DNA of 64,000 nt, taken from the sequence record OZ346222.1. One strand, written 5' to 3'. Source of the DNA: a phage. The position numbers and the translations under genes were made by a program. Within the stretch, counting starts at the first letter, position 1; each line of letters begins with the position of its first letter. A model generated the notes under the pieces. The model made no database searches. It was not told where the DNA came from and saw only the letters and a list, made by a program, of their open reading frames with translations. Positions 28,802-39,107 of this stretch are shown in pieces.

Positions 28802-30171
28802 TGGAAAAAGGGCAGTATGATGTAGGCACAGATGCTGCCCTCGTTGCAATCATGAGCGGTGAGAATGTCTTCGTTTCAGGACCAGCAGGTTGTGGGAAGA
28901 CGTACCTCATCAACATGATCCAGTCAATGTATGGAGACTCTTGCATAACGGTTGCCCCGACAGGGGTAGCCGCTTTAAACGTTAATGGAGCAACAGCACA
29001 CCGAACCTTCGATCTTGCAGCAGGTGTGAGCATGGAGTCAGACTGGACCGCAATAAGGGCAAAAACAGCAAAGCCTTTGAAAAGCAAGGCATTTACCATC
29101 CTGATTATCGATGAAATCTCTATGATCCGTGCTGATAAGTTTATAGAGATGGATAGGAAACTTCGCTTCCTTCGAAAAAATGACAAACCTTTCGGAGGCA
29201 TACAGGTCATATTGTTTGGCGATTTTTACCAGGCACCTCCTGTTGTCTCTTCTATGGAGAAGGAAGCCTACTTCAACTTCTACCATACAGACCTGTGTTG
29301 CTATACCGAATCTTGGAAAGAGCTTGACCTCCACAACATAGCCCTAATAGATCAGTTCCGACAGGAGTCTATTCGATTTGCCACAATGCTCAACTGTGTT
29401 CGTGAGGGTCGTCGCATAAAAGAGGTTGTAGCAGAACTTAATGCTCGCTGTTACAAAGGCGGTGTACCAACAGACGCTCTCACAATTTGCGCCACCAACA
29501 AACAAGCAGAGGAAGTGAACAGAAGGTTCTATGATGCCATCAACGCCCCGGAGAAGGTATACACTGGGGAAATGAAGGGTAAGTTTCCCTCCACCCTGCC
29601 AGTTGAGCAGGAGATGAAGTTGAAAATTGGCATGAAAGTTATGATAACCGCCAACGATGTTGACCCGACGCACAAAGTACCTTATTATGTTAACGGAACA
29701 CGTGCCACAATTGTTAAATTTAAGAACAAGGCGGTGGTGGTAGAGCTTGAAGATGGAACACAGGTTGACATAGAGCAGAGGTTGTGGGAGAATAACGAGT
29801 ATAAGCCATCTCAGAGATACAACATTGCAGAAAGGAAGATGGAGAAGTTTATAGAGAGGGTAGTGATTGGGTCATACAAGCAACTTCCTCTGAAATCTGG
29901 GTACGCCGTAACATCTCATAAAAGTCAAGGACTTACGCTAGATTGTTACAACCTAGACCTTGGAAAGAACGGAGCTTTCTCTCCTGGGATGACGTATGTC
30001 GCTTTGAGCAGAGTTAAGACAATACAAGGAATAAACTTGTTGCGTCCACTAAGAGAAGTTGACATTATTGTTGACCCGCGAGTCGTAGAGTTTTACAATA
30101 CAACATTCCCTGACTTAGACAAAATTGTCAGGAAAGATTTTGAAACCAGAGCCGAAGAGGGGGGCGTATGA
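28801..30171 (+). CDS. Dda / PIF1-RecD-like superfamily 1 DNA helicase
   Basis: 456 aa; Walker A GPAGCGKTY, Walker B ILIIDEISM, C-terminal YVALSRVK motif characteristic of RecD/PIF1/Dda helicases. Confidence 0.7.
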   Translation: MEKGQYDVGTDAALVAIMSGENVFVSGPAGCGKTYLINMIQSMYGDSCITVAPTGVAALNVNGATAHRTFDLAAGVSMESDWTAIRAKTAKPLKSKAFTILIIDEISMIRADKFIEMDRKLRFLRKNDKPFGGIQVILFGDFYQAPPVVSSMEKEAYFNFYHTDLCCYTESWKELDLHNIALIDQFRQESIRFATMLNCVREGRRIKEVVAELNARCYKGGVPTDALTICATNKQAEEVNRRFYDAINAPEKVYTGEMKGKFPSTLPVEQEMKLKIGMKVMITANDVDPTHKVPYYVNGTRATIVKFKNKAVVVELEDGTQVDIEQRLWENNEYKPSQRYNIAERKMEKFIERVVIGSYKQLPLKSGYAVTSHKSQGLTLDCYNLDLGKNGAFSPGMTYVALSRVKTIQGINLLRPLREVDIIVDPRVVEFYNTTFPDLDKIVRKDFETRAEEGGV

Positions 30172-30509
30172 GTTTGTGGAGAAATATCGTTAACTACGTG
30201 TGTGGCAATCCAACTCCTGAAGAGAAGGATGTTGTGATTCACGATTTTACTAAAAGATCTCGTGAAAAAGATCTACTGCTAACAAAGGTGACTGATAAAG
30301 ATCCTGCAGTAGGGGACTGGGCAGGTTTTGCATTCACATCGGACAAATACACCTTTAACAAAGGTGACTACCTTGTTGTGGATTTTAACGAAGACATCGA
30401 GGGTGCTGAACCTTACTATCAGACCCTTATTGTTGCAGGGTGTGTTGATCTCTCTGCAGGCATGCACAGTTTGATTCTTTTTGAGCTTGACTCTGAAGAC
30501 CTTGAGTAG
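30168..30509 (+). CDS. hypothetical protein
   Basis: 113-aa ORF, overlaps upstream stop. Confidence 0.5.
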   Translation: MSLWRNIVNYVCGNPTPEEKDVVIHDFTKRSREKDLLLTKVTDKDPAVGDWAGFAFTSDKYTFNKGDYLVVDFNEDIEGAEPYYQTLIVAGCVDLSAGMHSLILFELDSEDLE

Positions 30510-30570
30510 TAAGATGTGAGTATAAAGGGGAGGCCTCCTCCCCACAAAAAACTAAGGAGAGCACCAAACG

Positions 30571-31899
30571 ATGAGCAAAACCAAATTAGAACTTACCTGG
30601 ATAGGTAAAAACGAGCGCAAAAAATTAGAGCCACACATTTTGTTAGAAGACCCGAGCAAGTCTTATCACGCCAGCCAAAAAGTGACCGAAAACGATATTT
30701 TTGATAATAAACTGATTTTTGGCGATAACTTATTAGCATTGAAGGCGCTAGAGCAAGAATATGCAGGCAAAGTGAAGTGTGTTTACATAGACCCACCATT
30801 CAACACCGGGAGGGCTTTTGAGCACTACGATGATAGTCTGGAGCATTCCATTTGGCTGGGCTTAATGAGGGATAGGTTAGAAATAATTCGTAATCTTCTA
30901 AGTGATGACGGGGTAATATTCGTTCACTTAGATGATTGCGAAATGGCGTATTTAAAAGTTTTGATGGACGAGATTTTTGGTCGTGCAAATCAGTTAAATA
31001 CCATATCGATGACCACAAATTCCCCTTCGGGATTTAAGGCAACAGGAGCCACAGTTTTCTCCACAGCAAACTTTTTGCTTGTATATGCAAAAGATCGCAC
31101 CCAGAAACCGCTTAACAAAATCTATATACCTAAAGGGTATGATACCGGATATAACAAATACCTATTAAACCCGGATGATCATTATAAAAATTGGACGTGG
31201 TGCGGTATTGCCGATGCGTTTGCAAAGGCCAATGGCTATAAAGATGCAAAAGAAGCCAAGAAAAAACTGCCTGACACATTCGATGATGAATTAGCACAAT
31301 TTGCAATTGATAATGCAGAACGTGTATTTCAATCTGTTGCAATTGGTGGTGGTGCTAAAATAAAGAGAAAAGAAACTATAGAGAAGTCAAAGAAAGATAG
31401 GGATAAGGTTTATGTACATCCAAATGAGGATGTTGAAGGATTTTATATCGCAAATGGTAGGCAAATGGTCTTTTACTCCAACAGGCTTTTGGAAATTGAC
31501 GGTGATATGCAACCTGCGGAACTAATAACTGATGTTTGGACAGACATTAGTTGGAATGGAATAGCAAATGAAGGCGGCGTTAGTTTCAAAAATGGGAAAA
31601 AACCAGAAGCGCTTTTGAAGCGGATTTTCGAAATGTGTACGCGAGAAGGTGATTTGGTATTGGATTCATTCGGTGGTTCGGGAACTACTGCCGCTGTAGC
31701 TCACAAGATGAAAAGACGTTGGATCTCCATCGAGATTGGTGATCATTGCCATACCCATATTATTCCGCGCTTGGAAAAAGTGATCGATGGGGAAGATCAA
31801 GGTGGTATTTCTAAGTCTGTAAACTGGCAAGGTGGTGGTGGCTTCCGTTATTACAAACTTGCCCCGACCTTAATTGCGAAAGATAAGTCTGATCAATAA
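30571..31899 (+). CDS. DNA methyltransferase, beta-class (N6-adenine or N4-cytosine)
   Basis: 442 aa; catalytic DPPF motif near N-terminus (YIDPPFNTG) and SAM-binding FGGSGTT near C-terminus; motif IV before motif I defines the beta-class amino-MTase order. Confidence 0.7.
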   Translation: MSKTKLELTWIGKNERKKLEPHILLEDPSKSYHASQKVTENDIFDNKLIFGDNLLALKALEQEYAGKVKCVYIDPPFNTGRAFEHYDDSLEHSIWLGLMRDRLEIIRNLLSDDGVIFVHLDDCEMAYLKVLMDEIFGRANQLNTISMTTNSPSGFKATGATVFSTANFLLVYAKDRTQKPLNKIYIPKGYDTGYNKYLLNPDDHYKNWTWCGIADAFAKANGYKDAKEAKKKLPDTFDDELAQFAIDNAERVFQSVAIGGGAKIKRKETIEKSKKDRDKVYVHPNEDVEGFYIANGRQMVFYSNRLLEIDGDMQPAELITDVWTDISWNGIANEGGVSFKNGKKPEALLKRIFEMCTREGDLVLDSFGGSGTTAAVAHKMKRRWISIEIGDHCHTHIIPRLEKVIDGEDQGGISKSVNWQGGGGFRYYKLAPTLIAKDKSDQ

Positions 31900-31912
31900 A
31901 GAGTACAATCAA

Positions 31913-32218
31913 ATGATGAAACGTTATAAACCATACACTTTTGAAATCGATTTCGAACTTGACGATATGTTCACTGTAGAAGCTCAGGCAGTTGTCCAGT
32001 TGCCAGACCCGGAGTGCCGTGATTCTGATGTTGACTATTACGGATTTAGACAGATCACTGATGTGCATGTTTACCACAACGGTGAAGAGGTGGACTTCCA
32101 CCAACTGCCAAACGATATTCGCCACTCAATTTACAAACGTGCAGCCCGTGAACTAGAGTCCTATCTGGATGCAGCGACGACAGCAGCTGCATTTGCCGAA
32201 GAAGTGGGAGGTTTCTGA
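31913..32218 (+). CDS. hypothetical protein
   Basis: Start chosen at first internal ATG of track ORF 31874..32218 to avoid overlap with the MTase gene; uncertain. Confidence 0.4.
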   Translation: MMKRYKPYTFEIDFELDDMFTVEAQAVVQLPDPECRDSDVDYYGFRQITDVHVYHNGEEVDFHQLPNDIRHSIYKRAARELESYLDAATTAAAFAEEVGGF

Positions 32219-32616
32219 TGATTACAGGTGTGAAGATTCTCCAATACCACTTAACCAAATTGGAAGATGCTGAAAAAGAGCTTGCAGAAGTTCTGAATAG
32301 TGGATATACTTTGCTATCATGCGCCTGCTCAGACACCTACGTTGTGTGGACACTTATCCGGAAGGAAGAGCCTGCAGGGATCTTGGTGCCAAACCCTAAG
32401 ATTATTAGTGAGGTGGATGACTATTCCCAGGACGGCCTGCCAGAAGGCTGGGAAGTATGGGAAGGTGGTGAAAACCCTGCACCAGGTAAGTGGGTAAAAT
32501 ATAAACTACGTAGTGGTGCACAGTACGCTGACTACTCTGATGACCTAGACTGGAGTCATTCTTCACCAGGATCGTCTGCAAGTTCATATGATATCGTTGC
32601 TTTTCAGGAAGAATAA
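32218..32616 (+). CDS. hypothetical protein
   Basis: 132-aa ORF; ATG overlaps upstream stop. Confidence 0.5.
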   Translation: MITGVKILQYHLTKLEDAEKELAEVLNSGYTLLSCACSDTYVVWTLIRKEEPAGILVPNPKIISEVDDYSQDGLPEGWEVWEGGENPAPGKWVKYKLRSGAQYADYSDDLDWSHSSPGSSASSYDIVAFQEE

Positions 32617-32628
32617 GGAGATAGTGTT

Positions 32629-33111
32629 ATGTCAGCTTTTATGTGGAAAGTAGGTTACGCAGCTCCTGAAATGTGTGAGGCTTGCTTTGTGAAAATAGGC
32701 CGCGAGGATATCGACAAAGTGATCCTTAAGTTTCGTGATGTGGCTGTGATCGGCAACCGAGTGCTTAAGCACTTAAAGAATTTGAAGCTCACCAAAAAGA
32801 AATTCTTCGGGCTTTTCGAAGAGAAAGTTGATGCTTGGACCCATTGCATTCAGGAAGCTAAATCTCACTACAGCGCTATCGTTACCCCAGAACGGGTAGC
32901 CAAGATGGAAGGATTCATCAACAGCACAGAGTTTGAGTGCCTGAAAGCTGCACTTGATAGTTATCCGAAATGCCTCAAGCACTTGGACAAGTATGTAGAA
33001 AAGGATGGGGAAATGTACCTAACCCTGGACGCATATTATGAGATGCAAGAAATTTTAAATTTAGATTTGACATTGGTATCCACCGAGTATACAATAGGTA
33101 TCCGGGTTTAA
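32629..33111 (+). CDS. hypothetical protein
   Basis: 160-aa ORF with RBS AGGAG; followed by terminator. Confidence 0.5.
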   Translation: MSAFMWKVGYAAPEMCEACFVKIGREDIDKVILKFRDVAVIGNRVLKHLKNLKLTKKKFFGLFEEKVDAWTHCIQEAKSHYSAIVTPERVAKMEGFINSTEFECLKAALDSYPKCLKHLDKYVEKDGEMYLTLDAYYEMQEILNLDLTLVSTEYTIGIRV

Positions 33112-33116
33112 CACTA

Positions 33117-33150
33117 GGCCCTGCCCGAAAGGGTGGGGCTTTTTGCATTA
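33117..33150 (+). terminator. rho-independent terminator (copy 1 of a duplicated terminator sequence)
   Basis: GCCCTGCCC-GAAA-GGGTGGGGC hairpin plus TTTTTG; identical hairpin recurs at about 43512. Confidence 0.55.
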
Positions 33151-33162
33151 GGAGACAGCAAA

Positions 33163-33927
33163 TTGAAATTTATCTACAAAGAACACTACCACAAAGGTGT
33201 TGTGTGGAGCCTGTTTGACGGATCTGGTGGTGCAGTCATTGACTGGGCAAAAGCTGGGTATCTGTGCCTGTGCTTTAATGCAGAAGGTGCTGATCACGGC
33301 AGTTATGCAGAGGTGATAACCGATCATCCCAACATTCACTATGTGGATTATTGGATTGACCCATGGTTCCCTCAGGAAACTTTTTGCATGTACCCAGCTC
33401 CAGACTTTATTCTTGCATTTCCTCCGTGCACGCATTTAGCGGTATCAGGTGCTGCACATTTTAAGAAAAAGCTGGCTAAGGATCCTTTGATCCAAATTAA
33501 TGCTGTAAAGGATGCTCGGGTTGCGGAAGAGTTGGGAGAGATTTACGATTGCCCGTGGCATGTAGAGAATCCTGTAGGGGTTATGTCCACACTGTGGCGA
33601 AAACCTGATTACCGTTTTCATCCTTCGGATTATGGTGGGTATTTACCGGAGGATGATGTAAACCCCTGGTTTCCTGAATTTATAGCTCCACGTGATGCCT
33701 ATCCAAAAATAACTTGCGGCTGGATAGGCAATGGATTTATAATCCCGGCCACAAAACCTGTCCCGCAAATAGTTGACGCGGTTAGCGGGTATTCCATGCA
33801 ACACGCCAAGCTGGGTGGAAAGAGTGCAAGAACGAAGATGATCCGAAGCCTCACGCCACGTGGCTGGGCAAAAGCCGTATTCTTAGCAAACGAGCCTGTA
33901 GTAAGGAGCAGAATTAATGGGAAGTAA
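33163..33927 (+). CDS. compact DNA (cytosine-5)-methyltransferase-like protein
   Basis: Motif I-like WSLFDGSGG, motif IV-like FPPCTHLAVSG (catalytic Pro-Cys) and motif VI-like HVENPVG in canonical order; protein only about 254 aa; start placed at TTG 33163 (GGAG 8 nt upstream) because the in-frame GTG at 33133 lies inside the terminator hairpin. Confidence 0.45.
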   Translation: MKFIYKEHYHKGVVWSLFDGSGGAVIDWAKAGYLCLCFNAEGADHGSYAEVITDHPNIHYVDYWIDPWFPQETFCMYPAPDFILAFPPCTHLAVSGAAHFKKKLAKDPLIQINAVKDARVAEELGEIYDCPWHVENPVGVMSTLWRKPDYRFHPSDYGGYLPEDDVNPWFPEFIAPRDAYPKITCGWIGNGFIIPATKPVPQIVDAVSGYSMQHAKLGGKSARTKMIRSLTPRGWAKAVFLANEPVVRSRINGK

Positions 33928-35995
33928 ATTTATGGCATCTGCATACAACCGTTTCGGTGAGCCAAACCCGAAAGCAACTAAGTATAAAAGTGGGGGAAGT
34001 GTGAAACGAGACTATCGTGATGAAAAAGAGGTTGAAACTGTAGAGACTGTTTTAGAAAATACTAAAATCGTCCCTGTCCCACAACAAAATATCGGTCTGA
34101 TGGCTGCACAATATTTTGGTGTGCGATCAGCATTATCCCAAGAAGATGGTGTGACAGTCACTGCAACATATTTCCCATATTACGACCGCTACGGAAATCT
34201 GTCCGGTTTCAAAAAGCGTGACTGGACGATTCCTAAAGAGCAAAGAGGCCATTTCTCCGTTGTTGGCATAGTAAAGGCTAACTCTCAGATGTTTGGTCAA
34301 AAGCTGTGTGCATCTTCCAACAACCGTAAGCAGATTAACGTTTGTGAGGGAGAAGGTGATGTTATTGCAGCATGGCAGGCTGCATATCAGATACAAGTAA
34401 AAGGGATTCTCACCAACGCTAAAGCCCCGGCAAAGGTGAAACAGTGGGCTAAAGAGGTCCAGGACGGGATCGATGCAGTTATCAACGGTGGCGATCTGGC
34501 AGGAAAACCATGCCTGCCTTTTGTTGGAATTAACTGTGGATGTGCAAACGCAGTAGATACTTTTGCAAACAATGAGAAGTTTATCCGTAGCTATGGAACA
34601 GTTGTGCTGGCAATGGATAACGATGCAGCTAACGAGGTAGAGAAGCAAAAACACGTCATTAAAGGTGTTGAGGCCACGCACAATATCGCAGCATTTTTGA
34701 TGGCTGATAACGTTTACCACGTAGAATACCCTGGTGAAGTAAATGACCCTGACGGGGTAAAAGATATCCGTGACATGCTGAAGGCTAAAAAGCTGGAAGA
34801 TATTGTCAACATGTTCCGGCACCCTGTTAAATATGTGCCTGATGCTGTGTCGGATTTAGAAGACTTCTCTATCGAGTCTTTGCGGAAAAAGACTTCCAAC
34901 GGGGTAGATATCAGCGCAGAGTTCCCAAAACTGCAAAAAATGCTAAAAGGCTTGCACAAAGGGACACTCGTAATGCTTACAGGGCCATCAGGGGGCGGTA
35001 AAACAACTGTAGCTAAAAAACTGGAACATTGTATTGCAAGATACCTAATGGACCCGACATGCCCGAAGGCTGATGACTATGAAGAGGATGATCGTCTATG
35101 TATGATCCATCTTGAGGAGGACCCGGAGGAAGCAATTAACTCCTTGTATGCAAACCAGTTAGGGTTTGATGTTAAAGAGTTTGTTGAAGATCCTAGCCAG
35201 TTTTTAACTGATCAAGAACACGCAGAGATTCACCAATCATGGGCAAAAGCTGGAAAAATCAAAGTGTTCAAACATTTCGGATCTATTCCGGTGGACGAGT
35301 TGATTACCAAGCTTAAGCAAATGGTTTGCCTGTACCATTGCCGTTATATTGTGCTGGATCACCTGTCCATGGTAATTTCAGGGCTTAATGTTAAGGATGA
35401 GCGAAAAGAACTGGACATGGCTATGACTCAGCTGGCTGCGTTTTGTAAGCAGTTTAACGTGTTTATCTTAGTGATCGCTCACCTCAAACGTACAGAGATT
35501 GTGCCTCCTAAGGACAAGGATGGTAACCCGTTACCTTTCTGGTATCCTGTGCGAAAAGAGAATTTGCGAGGATCGGCGGGGCTTGAACAGTTGAGTTGGG
35601 TAGTCATAGGTGTCGAGGCCGAAGAAATGGTGGATCGTTCTCGTGGACGTGTCCGTCTGGTAGGTCTTAAAAACCGTCCAGCAAAAACTTTAGGTATTGC
35701 TGACACTTTGGTTATGGACCCGCACACAGGTAAGTTCCATGATGCCAGTAATTGGTACTGGGACAAAGAAATGCAAATGTTTACAGACGGAGAAGGTGGG
35801 GAGGTTGTTTGGAGACCTCAGGCTATGTTTGAGGATCAGGAGCATGCAGTTGTAGAAACACCTATGGGCAAGGTTGTGGCTGATAAGGTTGTAACTCCTA
35901 CTGTTAAGCCTGTTGACACGCAGGAAGACCTCCAGTACGATGATCCATCCTCTGACCCGGTCCCTGGTTTTGAGGATGATGAAACGCCTTTTTAA
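33917..35995 (+). CDS. DNA primase-helicase (Toprim primase fused to DnaB-like helicase)
   Basis: 692 aa; Toprim-like EGEGD and MDNDAANE motifs in N-terminal half; Walker A GPSGGGKTT and Walker B IVLDHL in C-terminal half; RBS AAGGAG. Confidence 0.65.
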   Translation: MGSKFMASAYNRFGEPNPKATKYKSGGSVKRDYRDEKEVETVETVLENTKIVPVPQQNIGLMAAQYFGVRSALSQEDGVTVTATYFPYYDRYGNLSGFKKRDWTIPKEQRGHFSVVGIVKANSQMFGQKLCASSNNRKQINVCEGEGDVIAAWQAAYQIQVKGILTNAKAPAKVKQWAKEVQDGIDAVINGGDLAGKPCLPFVGINCGCANAVDTFANNEKFIRSYGTVVLAMDNDAANEVEKQKHVIKGVEATHNIAAFLMADNVYHVEYPGEVNDPDGVKDIRDMLKAKKLEDIVNMFRHPVKYVPDAVSDLEDFSIESLRKKTSNGVDISAEFPKLQKMLKGLHKGTLVMLTGPSGGGKTTVAKKLEHCIARYLMDPTCPKADDYEEDDRLCMIHLEEDPEEAINSLYANQLGFDVKEFVEDPSQFLTDQEHAEIHQSWAKAGKIKVFKHFGSIPVDELITKLKQMVCLYHCRYIVLDHLSMVISGLNVKDERKELDMAMTQLAAFCKQFNVFILVIAHLKRTEIVPPKDKDGNPLPFWYPVRKENLRGSAGLEQLSWVVIGVEAEEMVDRSRGRVRLVGLKNRPAKTLGIADTLVMDPHTGKFHDASNWYWDKEMQMFTDGEGGEVVWRPQAMFEDQEHAVVETPMGKVVADKVVTPTVKPVDTQEDLQYDDPSSDPVPGFEDDETPF

Positions 35996-36053
35996 TGTTT
36001 AACAAAGAGTGGGAGGGGTAGTACAACCGCCTCCCCTTTAAGGAGAACTGTAT

Positions 36054-38483
36054 ATGAGTATGTGGTCTTTCGATTTTGAGTCATCCGGTTTGCTGGAAGA
36101 CCCAGATCTTTATTATCACTGCGGTCTGTTTAAAGAGCTGAATAAGAACCGTTTTATGCTGTTCCTTCCTCTAAATGACCGCACACACTACTCCGAGGAG
36201 GATATAGAAAAGGCTAAGAACTTCATTCTGTCAAAGAAAACTCTTTATAAAGATTTTGAAGTTCGCATAGCAGATTTTTCGGAGTTGGAAGGTTGGCTTA
36301 CAGGCAATTCTGACTGGTCACCAACAGCTTTGAACTGCCATAACTGCTACAGTTATGACTTTATGCTAATGGAAAGATTATCCGGTATTCATTTTGATAT
36401 GTTCCGTGATCCTAAATGCATGGGGACTATCAACGACCACCAGGTTAACCTGTTTGATACGTTGGCTATGAGCCGAATCTTGTGGCCTGATCGCCCTTTA
36501 CCAAAAGGTTGTCCGGACGCTGTATTCAACCCGGTTACTAAGAAAATGCAACCTGTTGGTCCTCACGGCCTTATGGCATGGGGCTACGCCCTTGGTAACC
36601 AGAAAGTTCAAATTGATGACTGGCGCGATCTTCCGTTGTGGAAGTATGTGGATCGTGTATTCGAGGACGTTATCATCCAGGAGCTGCTCTGGAAAGAGCT
36701 GGTAGCGGAATCAAAAGGTGTATTCTACGGCAAATCTGACATGCAGAACTTTATGTACGATCCAGCCAAAGAGAAGCCGAAAGGGTTCAAGAAGATCACC
36801 TGGAAGAACGCATTACGTCGAGGCATGCTGCAGCACTTCCTGATGGAGCTGCAGGCCCGTCAGGGTGTATACTTCGACATAGATGGAGCTATTGCTTTAC
36901 GTGACCGTTGCGATGCGTGGATGAAAGAAATCGCTGATCGTGTTGAACCACAACTACCTTTAAAAGAGCTGTCAATGTCTCAGCGGCCCAAGTTCCCTGA
37001 AAAGCCGTTTAACCAAGACGGGACAATCTCTAATAATGGTTGGAAATGGTTAAAAGATAAGCTTGGCTATCCTGTAGACATGAGTGCTTTAGAGTTCAAA
37101 GCCCCGCCTAAGCGAGCATTTACCTCTACAGGAGATGTCAGCAAGATGGGGATAAAATGGTGTGAAGAGATGGGCTGCAAAGACCCCGATAAGATGGCTG
37201 ATTTCTTGAGAGGCTATATTAAGGGCACCTCCACACCACAACCCTTACCTAAAGAGCTGATGGATCAGGCAATAAGTGATCTGCAGCAGAAGCGAATGCC
37301 TGACTGCAAGATACCTATGAAAATCAGCAATCAGGACGACATCAAGCGATACCTAATCAGTGCTGGTTGGCTCCCAACAATGTGGAGAACTAAAGATGTA
37401 ACTAAAGACAGCAAGAAGAAAGCTTTACCTGATGCAGATGTTGATGCACGAGTATATGCATATATGGACGAGCTTTTGGAGTCAGAGTATTGTGACCTAA
37501 TTATCAACTTCTGGAACAAAACTGATGCTAAGTTCCAGACAACCGTGCACAAGTTCCGAAGCTTTCCTAACTCCGAAAGGATTAAAAAGGAAGTATTCGG
37601 GAAAATACGTAGAAAAGCCAGGGCACTTATTACTTCTCCGCAACTGAAAGATACGTTTGGACACCTATGCCCAAATCTTGAAAAATTGAACGGAGAGATG
37701 GCTAAAGATATCGTCTTGTGGTTATCATTGCGAAACCGCAGATCGGTCCTTGATCCAATCAAGGAGGATAAGGTTGATACTGGTCTTCTTAATCACCCAC
37801 GTTTGAAGATTGACCATAAGCTTCCTGCTAAAAGCTCTGGATTAACAAACACTTCCAGACAGAAACACAGTATTTGTGCAAACATGCCTAAACCATCTCC
37901 TAAAGTGGTTATGGGTAAAGAGATGCGTAGTCTGTGGGGTGTTCCTCCGGGATACTTTGAGATCGGTATTGACGGGTCCAACTTAGAGCAGCTTATCGGG
38001 GCTTGGGGTGCCTTTGAGTTCGACAACGGCCTGTATTATGATGTTGTAAGTAACGGAGACGCACACCAAAACAATGCTGAGGCATATACAAAAGTGGCAG
38101 GCAGAGAGGTGTCCCGTAACGACGGTAAACCTATCACGTATGGGGTTATGTACGGGGCACAAAAAGATAAAGTTGCAGATATGTTGGACATCTCCCCAGA
38201 GTTGGGACAAAGGGTAATCGATGCACTCTGGGATGCCAACCCAGGTCTTAAGGGGCGCAAAGAGGATCTGGAGAAATTCTGGGAAGCAACAGGTAAGAAG
38301 TTTATCTACTCTTTTGATGGTCATGCTATCTGGACCCGATCTAAACACTCTTTACTTAATGCATACCAACAAAATGGCGGTGCATCGTTGTGTGACTTAG
38401 TTGGAATACTCATGCACCACCAGATGGTGAAGCGTGGGTGGTACGATGAAGGTGTTCGTCGTATTATTTATTACCATAAATAA
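36054..38483 (+). CDS. DNA polymerase, family A: exon 1 (3'-5' exonuclease + polymerase through motif B)
   Basis: 809-aa ORF; Exo I-like FDFESSG at N-terminus; motif A-like IGIDGSNLEQL; motif B-like KPITYGVMYGAQ; ORF terminates ...RRIIYYH-K-stop exactly where motif C (HDE) is expected. Confidence 0.7.
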   Translation: MSMWSFDFESSGLLEDPDLYYHCGLFKELNKNRFMLFLPLNDRTHYSEEDIEKAKNFILSKKTLYKDFEVRIADFSELEGWLTGNSDWSPTALNCHNCYSYDFMLMERLSGIHFDMFRDPKCMGTINDHQVNLFDTLAMSRILWPDRPLPKGCPDAVFNPVTKKMQPVGPHGLMAWGYALGNQKVQIDDWRDLPLWKYVDRVFEDVIIQELLWKELVAESKGVFYGKSDMQNFMYDPAKEKPKGFKKITWKNALRRGMLQHFLMELQARQGVYFDIDGAIALRDRCDAWMKEIADRVEPQLPLKELSMSQRPKFPEKPFNQDGTISNNGWKWLKDKLGYPVDMSALEFKAPPKRAFTSTGDVSKMGIKWCEEMGCKDPDKMADFLRGYIKGTSTPQPLPKELMDQAISDLQQKRMPDCKIPMKISNQDDIKRYLISAGWLPTMWRTKDVTKDSKKKALPDADVDARVYAYMDELLESEYCDLIINFWNKTDAKFQTTVHKFRSFPNSERIKKEVFGKIRRKARALITSPQLKDTFGHLCPNLEKLNGEMAKDIVLWLSLRNRRSVLDPIKEDKVDTGLLNHPRLKIDHKLPAKSSGLTNTSRQKHSICANMPKPSPKVVMGKEMRSLWGVPPGYFEIGIDGSNLEQLIGAWGAFEFDNGLYYDVVSNGDAHQNNAEAYTKVAGREVSRNDGKPITYGVMYGAQKDKVADMLDISPELGQRVIDALWDANPGLKGRKEDLEKFWEATGKKFIYSFDGHAIWTRSKHSLLNAYQQNGGASLCDLVGILMHHQMVKRGWYDEGVRRIIYYHK

Positions 38484-38753
38484 CATTGTGGCTTCATAGA
38501 GTAATCTATGTCGAATAACCTCTTTAACTGCGGGAAGCCTAAACCTTATGGCAAGGTAATCCGCAACGAAGCGCTCAAAAGAGCGAACGCTCAGAGGCCA
38601 TTCCGAAAGGAAGTAGACCAGCAAGTGCGGTCGAAATGGGAGGATTCCTGTGGTTGCTTATCATAGGAATATGAGATGGTCCGATCCTACGTGAAAACGT
38701 ATGGCTATGCACGTAATGGTGCGGGGTAGCTTAACGACCTACCTGAACTATTG
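38478..38753 (+). other. putative group I intron (about 276 nt, no ORF) interrupting the DNA polymerase gene at motif C
   Basis: Exon 1 ends in U (CAU His codon); intervening sequence ends in G; downstream frame resumes with GAT GAG (DE) to complete HDE; intron-internal GUGG about 10 nt in can pair with exon-terminal CCAU (P1 with U.G at splice site); boundaries +/- 2 nt. Confidence 0.5.
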
Positions 38754-39107
38754 GATGAGTACCAACTTCAAGTGCCTGACACACCGAAGTATAAGACTGT
38801 GTACACCTTCGACACAATTGAAGAACTGGAAGCATTTAAGGCAGAGCAGGAAGCCAAACTTCATGTGTTCGACGGTCATAAGTACAAAAAGGCACGCAAG
38901 GATGAGGACGGAAACGAAGTGGTTGACAGAGACGGAAACACGGTGTACGATCCTATCCTGAACGATGACGGAAAGCTTGAACTTATCTGGAGCCCTGTGG
39001 GTGAAATGGTGGTACATTGCTTCTGGCAAGCTTCTAAAATGATGGGAGTCCCGTTCCAGATCACAGGTGAATACTTGTGTGGTCGTAATTGGGGTGATTG
39101 TCACTAA
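38754..39107 (+). CDS. DNA polymerase, family A: exon 2 (motif C aspartate through C-terminus)
   Basis: Frame of track ORF 38751..39107 read from codon 2: DEYQLQV... ending ...GVPFQITGEYLCGRNWGDCH, resembling the Pol I C-terminus (...VPLLVEVGSGENWDQAH); no RBS or ATG of its own. Confidence 0.5.
   Translation, partial: DEYQLQVPDTPKYKTVYTFDTIEELEAFKAEQEAKLHVFDGHKYKKARKDEDGNEVVDRDGNTVYDPILNDDGKLELIWSPVGEMVVHCFWQASKMMGVPFQITGEYLCGRNWGDCH

Follow-up and report, generated by a model that had tools for sequence, protein, structure and literature searches.

A 64,000-nucleotide stretch of phage DNA from sequence record OZ346222.1 (hereafter the window, at its full length) carries two open reading frames (ORFs) with methyltransferase motifs, ORF A at 30571..31899 and ORF B at 33163..33927. 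All coordinates are positions in the window, and the features given for these two loci lie on the + strand. We compared the region 30000..36000 with phage genomes and observed 98.7% identity over its full length to Escherichia phage JES2013, and 97-98% identity to many further Vequintavirus (rV5-like) genomes, several BASEL phages included. By this sequence comparison, the window is Vequintavirus DNA, from an rV5-like E. coli phage. The gene order (rIIB, a Pif1/Dda-like helicase, a small ORF, ORF A, three small ORFs, ORF B, a primase/helicase and the DNA polymerase) agrees with the GenBank annotation of phage MaxBurger. Both ORFs are found among the replication genes, as had been proposed in the original prediction, which was made from the letters of this DNA. 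We consider it quite probable that this replication module holds two independent orphan S-adenosylmethionine (SAM)-dependent DNA methyltransferase genes, with ORF B coding for a compact Dcm-like C5 enzyme and ORF A for a Mod-like beta-class enzyme. GenBank entries for sister phages already annotate both genes as methyltransferases; the feature is known, and its annotation is routine. Our analysis covered gene boundaries, family membership, fold and the conservation of catalytic residues, and the formation of 5-methylcytosine (5mC) by a relative 54% identical to ORF B was taken from the literature. From these we infer, in the reading that we favour, that the two proteins are active, and what their target sites and biological role would be.

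ORF B codes for a 254-aa protein, assigned from a profile match and a predicted fold as a putative compact Dcm-like DNA cytosine-C5 methyltransferase. Its start codon is TTG, not ATG, and a ribosome-binding site (AGGAGA, 33150..33155) lies 7 nt before it. The gene boundaries are identical in the GenBank annotation of sister phages, and an identical 254-aa protein is on record. The gene ends 11 nt inside the primase/helicase gene, which starts at 33917. Three C5-methyltransferase motifs had been read from the sequence in canonical order, and we located all three. Motif I (SLFDGSGG, aa 16-23, 33208..33231), the putative SAM-binding loop, aligned with motif I of DNMT3B and M.HaeIII. Motif IV (FPPCTHLAVSG, aa 86-96, 33418..33450) contains the invariant Cys89, the predicted catalytic nucleophile. 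Motif VI (HVENPVG, aa 133-139, 33559..33579) contains Glu135, the predicted proton donor to cytosine N3, and its ENP (aa 135-137) aligned with ENV of M.HhaI.

A putative motif VIII-like segment, PRDAYPKITCGW (33688..33723), stands in place of the canonical QxRxR. After it comes a variable segment (aa 196-226, 33748..33840; about 31 aa) of the 'GYSxQH' sequence class, where conservation and confidence are at their lowest in the protein. No other part of ORF B leaves room for a target-recognition element. The motif IX-like segment, IRSLTPRGWAKAV (33841..33879), runs into the C-terminal helix; its likeness to RKLHPRECARV of M.HhaI was judged by eye, with the M.HhaI sequence verified.

We assessed the family to which ORF B belongs. 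Along its whole length, ORF B matched phrog_757 ('DNA methyltransferase'; E 5e-87, profile positions 3-226 of 247). The family comprises 3,546 clusters at 90% identity and 1,018 clusters at 50% identity, with members of about 220-260 aa. Using tblastn, we detected the family in 1,504 of 50,697 phage records, mostly from Escherichia, Klebsiella and Salmonella phages; T1-like, Dhillonvirus-like and Jersey-like phages and large myoviruses were among the carriers. Conservation was assessed in 62 diverse relatives (33-55% identity). Cys89, Gly96, Glu135 and Pro137 were invariant (62/62), and N136 was kept in 59 of the 62. Near-invariant positions were K103, D178, Y180, K182, T184, W187 and P195, as well as R228, P232, G234 and A238 of the motif IX-like segment. 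GenBank records of BASEL phages name the Vequintavirinae ORF B gene 'Dcm-like C5 cytosine methyltransferase', and two papers on Vequintavirinae read the gene as a cytosine methylase by HHpred.

We also compared ORF B with characterized C5-methyltransferases. The family profile reached only E 0.16-0.27 against PDB sequences, to DNMT3B and M.HaeIII, and an hhalign comparison with M.HhaI gave E 0.21, with motifs I, IV and VI lining up. Because these profile alignments are not significant alone, a fold search was needed. We built an AlphaFold model of ORF B on 27 relatives (predicted local distance difference test, pLDDT, 88; predicted template modelling score, pTM, 0.88). The first 50 Foldseek matches to this model were all DNMT3A/B/C (E about 1e-6, template modelling score about 0.5), and DNA enzymes scored above Dnmt2. 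As modelled, ORF B has the three-dimensional fold of a C5-methyltransferase. Comparison with C5-methyltransferases by profile and structure had been proposed along with the original prediction; the fold was recovered through Foldseek, and the PF00145 threshold was not reached.

The catalytic domain of mammalian DNMT3A/DNMT3B is the best fold match of ORF B, yet the two share only 12-16% identity. DNMT3 forms dimers or tetramers, has regulatory domains and reads CpG. With type II C5-methyltransferases and E. coli Dcm (PF00145; M.HhaI, M.HaeIII), ORF B shares the fold, the order of motifs I, IV and VI, the Pro-Cys and the Glu. It is 70-220 residues shorter than these enzymes, however, and lacks both their recognition domain of 80-100 residues and a restriction partner. 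No separate target-recognition domain is present between motifs VIII and IX of ORF B, where we found ~31 residues, mostly loop. The earlier remark that the protein is too short for a typical target-recognition domain therefore holds. Its description as unusually compact holds only relative to type II C5-methyltransferases such as M.HhaI (327 aa). Among 173 full-length relatives the median length was 233 aa and the median variable segment 28 residues, so ORF B (254 aa, segment about 31-32 residues) is slightly long for its own family. Because nearly all members measure 220-260 aa, the short length of ORF B is the family norm and not an oddity.

Experimental data on the family are available for phage K42, a relative of BASEL phage KarlJaspers (Bas06) at 95% identity. 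Mutants of K42 that escaped retron Ec86/Eco1 were all hit in a 711-bp gene (bioRxiv 10.1101/2023.08.16.553469). This gene, a 'Dcm-like C5 cytosine methyltransferase', is the trigger of the retron, and the modelled protein matched DNMT3A in structure, with active-site residues C82, E128, K175 and K176 (bioRxiv 10.1101/2023.08.16.553469). Upon expression of wild-type K42 Dcm in vivo, 5mC on the Ec86 multicopy single-stranded DNA (msDNA) rose, as measured by liquid chromatography with mass spectrometry (LC-MS), and no such rise was seen with the C82A/E128A/K175A/K176A mutant (bioRxiv 10.1101/2023.08.16.553469).

We aligned ORF B with the KarlJaspers protein, bas06_0055 (711 bp, 236 aa), and observed 54% identity (E 2e-86). 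C82, E128 and K175 of bas06_0055 aligned with C89, E135 and K182 of ORF B with the same Cys/Glu/Lys spacing, and K176 aligned with I183. The identity and the aligned catalytic residues make ORF B a member of a family with demonstrated 5mC formation. The K42/Bas06 enzyme and ORF B have the same family, the same architecture, a length of ~230-250 aa and DNMT3 as best structural match. They differ in their variable segments, which are of the NPGW class in K42/Bas06 and the GYSxQH class in ORF B, and in their phages, the K42-type host phage being a T1-like siphovirus. The original prediction had also suggested that ORF B might be an orphan of minimal specificity or a hypermodification enzyme. Neither idea is supported, because the 54%-identical K42 Dcm makes 5mC and its catalytic mutant does not, and because the size of ORF B is normal for its family.

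Several observations weigh against reading ORF B as a C5-methyltransferase with a relative of established activity. ORF B lies below every C5-methyltransferase threshold in Pfam and NCBIfam: we found no Pfam match, PF00145 included, at E<=0.1 and no NCBIfam match, TIGR00675 (dcm) included, at E<=1. Among the 62 relatives, just 5 gave a weak PF00145 match (best E 0.0067). Motif I is degenerate in the wider family, with only [FY]-D-x-[TS]-G kept, while ORF B itself has LFDGSGG. The acidic position of motif II is N39 in ORF B and D in 58 of the 62 relatives. In the ORF B sequence we could not recognise the canonical QxRxR of motif VIII or the GN of motif X, whose places may be taken by RDAYPKxT (aa 177-184) and the C-terminal helix. 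In the compact family, 5mC has been measured by LC-MS for the K42 enzyme only. The variable segments of ORF B and K42/Bas06 agree at 3 of 21 residues, as against 54% identity overall. Moreover, the CCWGG specificity of K42 Dcm was assumed by analogy with host Dcm and not mapped (bioRxiv 10.1101/2023.08.16.553469). In the same study, changing the CC of CCTGG in the msDNA stem abolished defence (bioRxiv 10.1101/2023.08.16.553469).

One alternative is that ORF B is not a DNA methyltransferase here, and is instead a relic that binds DNA but is inactive, or an enzyme with an RNA substrate, like Dnmt2 with tRNA. We regard this as very unlikely. The catalytic Cys and Glu and many further positions are invariant or nearly so in the 62 relatives, which is the pattern of an enzyme under selection, and ORF B is kept at >=95% identity in 116 phage records. 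An RNA substrate is also at odds with the fold search, in which DNA enzymes outscored Dnmt2, and with the studied relative, K42 Dcm, which acts on the DNA part of msDNA.

Our preferred reading is that ORF B is, by analogy, a working compact 'phage Dcm-like' enzyme, and its chemistry would be that of every C5-cytosine methyltransferase. The enzyme would flip out a cytosine; Cys89 of the FPPC loop would then attack C6 while Glu135 of the ENP loop protonates N3. Transfer of the SAM methyl group to C5 and release of the enzyme by beta-elimination would leave 5-methylcytosine. In place of a recognition domain of 80-100 residues, the segment aa 196-226 and the conserved loop aa 155-183 would presumably recognise a short DNA site, in the way that CpG is read by the catalytic domain of DNMT3, which is of comparably small size. 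Given its 11-nt overlap with the primase/helicase gene, ORF B is probably co-expressed with the replication genes, and its substrate would be phage DNA that has just been made.

The same fold could also serve another transfer, either carboxymethylation, as in CmoX, or the first step of a cytosine hypermodification. CmoX, a phage DNA cytosine C5-carboxymethyltransferase (PDB 8yf3), has an SPPC motif and a motif X Arg that binds the carboxyl group and replaces Asn304 of M.HhaI, and it is usually accompanied by a phage cmoA gene and an amide ligase gene nearby. ORF B has FPPC in place of SPPC and no such neighbours annotated, and the full annotation of the 99%-identical sister genome Bas51 contains no CmoA or amide-ligase genes. 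The 54%-identical K42 enzyme gave 5mC in E. coli, where carboxy-SAM is available. In addition, Vequintavirinae are readily restricted, which argues against a bulky hypermodification. These data make a transfer other than methylation extremely improbable for ORF B, and we retain C5 methylation as its predicted chemistry.

Classification of the variable segment in the 173 full-length relatives gave at least three classes, with 82 GYSxQH members (ORF B among them), 31 NPGW members (K42/Bas06 among them) and 60 others. Because the variable segment of ORF B is of another sequence class, its target site may differ from that of K42 Dcm. A bolder proposal is that this stretch of ~30 residues is a true minimal recognition module existing in several classes, of which the GYSxQH class may read a site other than CCWGG. 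We consider this speculative and rather unlikely.

ORF A starts with ATG and codes for 442 aa. Based on Pfam, PHROG and its motifs, it is a predicted orphan beta-class (type III Mod-like) DNA amino-methyltransferase. We observed matches to Pfam PF01555 (N6_N4_Mtase; 146.4 bits against a cut-off of 26.7, E 1.6e-42) and to phrog_67 (E 3.7e-63). Motif IV (DPPF, aa 74-77, 30790..30801), the putative catalytic loop that binds the target amino group, aligned with the DPPY of Mod subunits. Motif I (FGGSGTT, aa 367-373, computed position 31669..31689), predicted to bind SAM, was likewise placed by alignment with Mod subunits. Because motif IV lies upstream of motif I, the order is that of the beta class. 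The motif order and the PF01555 match both sustain the initial description of this ORF as a beta-class amino-methyltransferase.

The closest solved relatives of ORF A are type III Mod proteins: 6k0w (E 1.8e-28), EcoP15I Mod (E 1.2e-23) and Mbo45V (E 5.8e-19). Type III Mod subunits such as EcoP15I Mod and 6k0w share with ORF A the beta-class order and the DPP[FY] and FxGSGTT motifs. ORF A differs from them in its length, which is ~180-200 residues less, in the lack of a Res partner and in standing alone as a phage cassette. Among the flanking genes we found no adjoining Res (helicase-nuclease) gene; the neighbours are a small hypothetical gene and small ORFs, and the helicases nearby are Pif1/Dda-like and DnaB-like replication proteins. 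With respect to the target base, DPPF and the Mod-like relatives favour N6-adenine. Counting against this, N4-cytosine is a possible target even with DPPF, and one automatic annotation names ORF A after the N4-cytosine enzyme M.BamHI. ORF A would be a type III Mod-like beta-class enzyme working without Res, most likely forming N6-methyladenine (6mA) at a short site of its own.

The distribution of the two genes differs. At >=90% identity, ORF A is present in 88 phage records and ORF B in 117. Phage EduardKellenberger (Bas59) does not have ORF A, and the gene is missing from about a quarter of sister genomes. We aligned 30440..31915 of the window with Bas59 and observed identity through a promoter-like site, a hairpin, the ribosome-binding site and the ATG, and then straight into the next gene. 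In phages without ORF A, the promoter-like site, hairpin, ribosome-binding site and ATG are kept and start that next gene (MKRYKPYTF...). The promoter-like site (TTGACT-17-TAAGAT) and the G+C-rich palindromic hairpin upstream of ORF A span 30487..30543 and are consensus matches only. The G+C content of ORF A is 0.40, compared with 0.44-0.47 in most neighbouring genes. ORF A is 99% identical to its Bas51 orthologue, bas51_0070, and its next relatives, from Campylobacter phages, share 37-42% identity. On this genome comparison, ORF A is an accessory presence/absence cassette that some sister phages lack.

Published methylation data are available for a close relative of the window phage. Bas51 (phage WalterGehring, MZ501111) has orthologues of ORF A (99% identical) and ORF B (99.6% identical) and carries four methyltransferase-like genes, bas51_0070, bas51_0074, bas51_0176 and bas51_0200. 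A retron-triggering 'N6 adenine methyltransferase' acting on GATC has been described in Bas51, with mutations D69G, D79G and T83P (PMC12548924). We considered bas51_0070, the ORF A orthologue, as this enzyme and rejected it, as its residue 69 is Cys and the mutations do not fit. D69, D79 and T83 fit bas51_0176, a 177-aa NPPY enzyme encoded elsewhere in the genome, outside the window. Three genes in the Bas51 record share the name 'N6 adenine methyltransferase', including the 441-aa counterpart of ORF A, which invites confusion.

We compared the published nanopore source data for Bas51 (PMC12548924) with our own site counts for its genome. Bas51 has 703 GATC sites, or 1,406 adenines on both strands; 1,405 6mA calls fell on GATC in the wild type and 35 in the T83P mutant. 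For GTAC (258 sites, 516 adenines on both strands), there were 509 calls in the wild type and 511 in the T83P mutant. Other motifs received 576 calls in the wild type and 349 in the mutant. GATC and GTAC are essentially fully marked on both strands in Bas51, and the GTAC mark (~99%) is independent of the GATC enzyme. The window contains 318 GATC sites and 134 GTAC sites.

E. coli K-12 is not known to have a GTAC methyltransferase, and a phage gene must therefore write the GTAC mark of Bas51. The writer could be bas51_0070, which is of the ORF A type. Another candidate is bas51_0200, whose gamma class is also that of the GTAC adenine methylase M.HpyAXII. An enzyme of the ORF B type would have to act through miscalling, with a modified cytosine beside the called adenine, and this is the least likely candidate. 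McrBC cuts R-5mC, and GTA-5mC would be an R-5mC site. Bas51 nevertheless plates on MG1655 (PMC12548924), which argues against ORF B as the GTAC writer. Relative to Markov expectation, GTAC words in Bas51 occur at 0.59 and CCWGG words at 0.69; these values are suggestive but not decisive, and compatible with several explanations.

As to biological role, the likely benefit of ORF A and ORF B would be the shielding of particular sites from host restriction enzymes, and the cost would be that such methylation can provoke defence by retrons. For most orphan phage methyltransferases, anti-restriction is the established role. Protection against restriction is plausible but unproven for ORF A and ORF B. 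Opposed to it is the finding of the BASEL study that Vequintavirinae are 'exceptionally susceptible' to the restriction systems tested, so any protective role must be narrow. The sites tested need not overlap the target sites of ORF A and ORF B, which leaves room for site-specific protection. The restriction sites of that panel are not known to overlap GATC, GTAC or CCWGG.

The sensitivity of Vequintavirinae also speaks for an alternative in which both enzymes are active and anti-restriction is not their main role. They would then serve the phage in replication, in packaging or in the timing of its genes, or act against another defence. In line with this, both genes lie among replication genes, with ORF B overlapping the primase/helicase start; no simple pattern linked methyltransferase genes to restriction resistance among the T1-like phages of the BASEL study; and phage methyltransferases are retained even though they are a liability against retrons. 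ORF A, however, is dispensable in nature, and its absence from Bas59 and other sister phages is easier to reconcile with an accessory gene for anti-restriction than with a core function in replication. Together with the general role of orphan phage methyltransferases and the limited set of sites tested, this leads us to regard a main role outside anti-restriction as improbable, though worth keeping in view, and to favour shielding from restriction.

About 3% of sequenced phage genomes carry a member of the compact Dcm-like family, which sets off at least one retron defence. The remaining interest is modest and concerns how a C5-methyltransferase of 230-250 residues without a recognition domain picks its DNA site, and which gene, among the four methyltransferase-like ones that rV5-like phages carry, is the writer of the complete GTAC mark. 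Mapped specificities would help to predict which restriction systems and retrons are evaded or set off by these phages, which have a broad host range and are used therapeutically.

We also observed possible expression signals around ORF B. A sigma-70-like promoter site (TTGACA-17-TACAAT, 11/12) lies upstream at 33067..33095, and a hairpin of 11 pairs followed by a T run (33116..33141) stands between this site and the ribosome-binding site. Promoter-like sites in the region were no more numerous in total than in shuffled sequence, and the site is therefore a lead and not a demonstrated promoter. This strong hairpin with its T run comes within 20 nt after the promoter-like site, and a comparable promoter-like site and hairpin precede ORF A. 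A further promoter-like site precedes the polymerase gene at 35913..35941.

The ORF just downstream of ORF A (31874..32218) belongs to phrog_4240, a family of unknown function. It weakly matched the C-terminal parts of 'DNA methyltransferase' PHROGs (phrog_1573, E 3.6e-5; phrog_2060, E 0.009).

The DNA polymerase gene (36054..38483 plus about 38751..39107) is split by a group I intron without an ORF at 38468..38703 of the window (Rfam RF00028, 64.7 bits against a gathering score of 50, E 3.8e-16). The MaxBurger polymerase gene is uninterrupted across the exact intron point, and the Bas51 gene holds other insertions, with homing endonucleases.

Dozens of GenBank records named 'Campylobacter phage', with Campylobacter jejuni as listed host (MG065635, MG065647, MG065662, MG065677 and others), are 98-99% identical to the window phage in ORF A and ORF B. 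These records are probably contaminating coliphages or carry mislabelled hosts.

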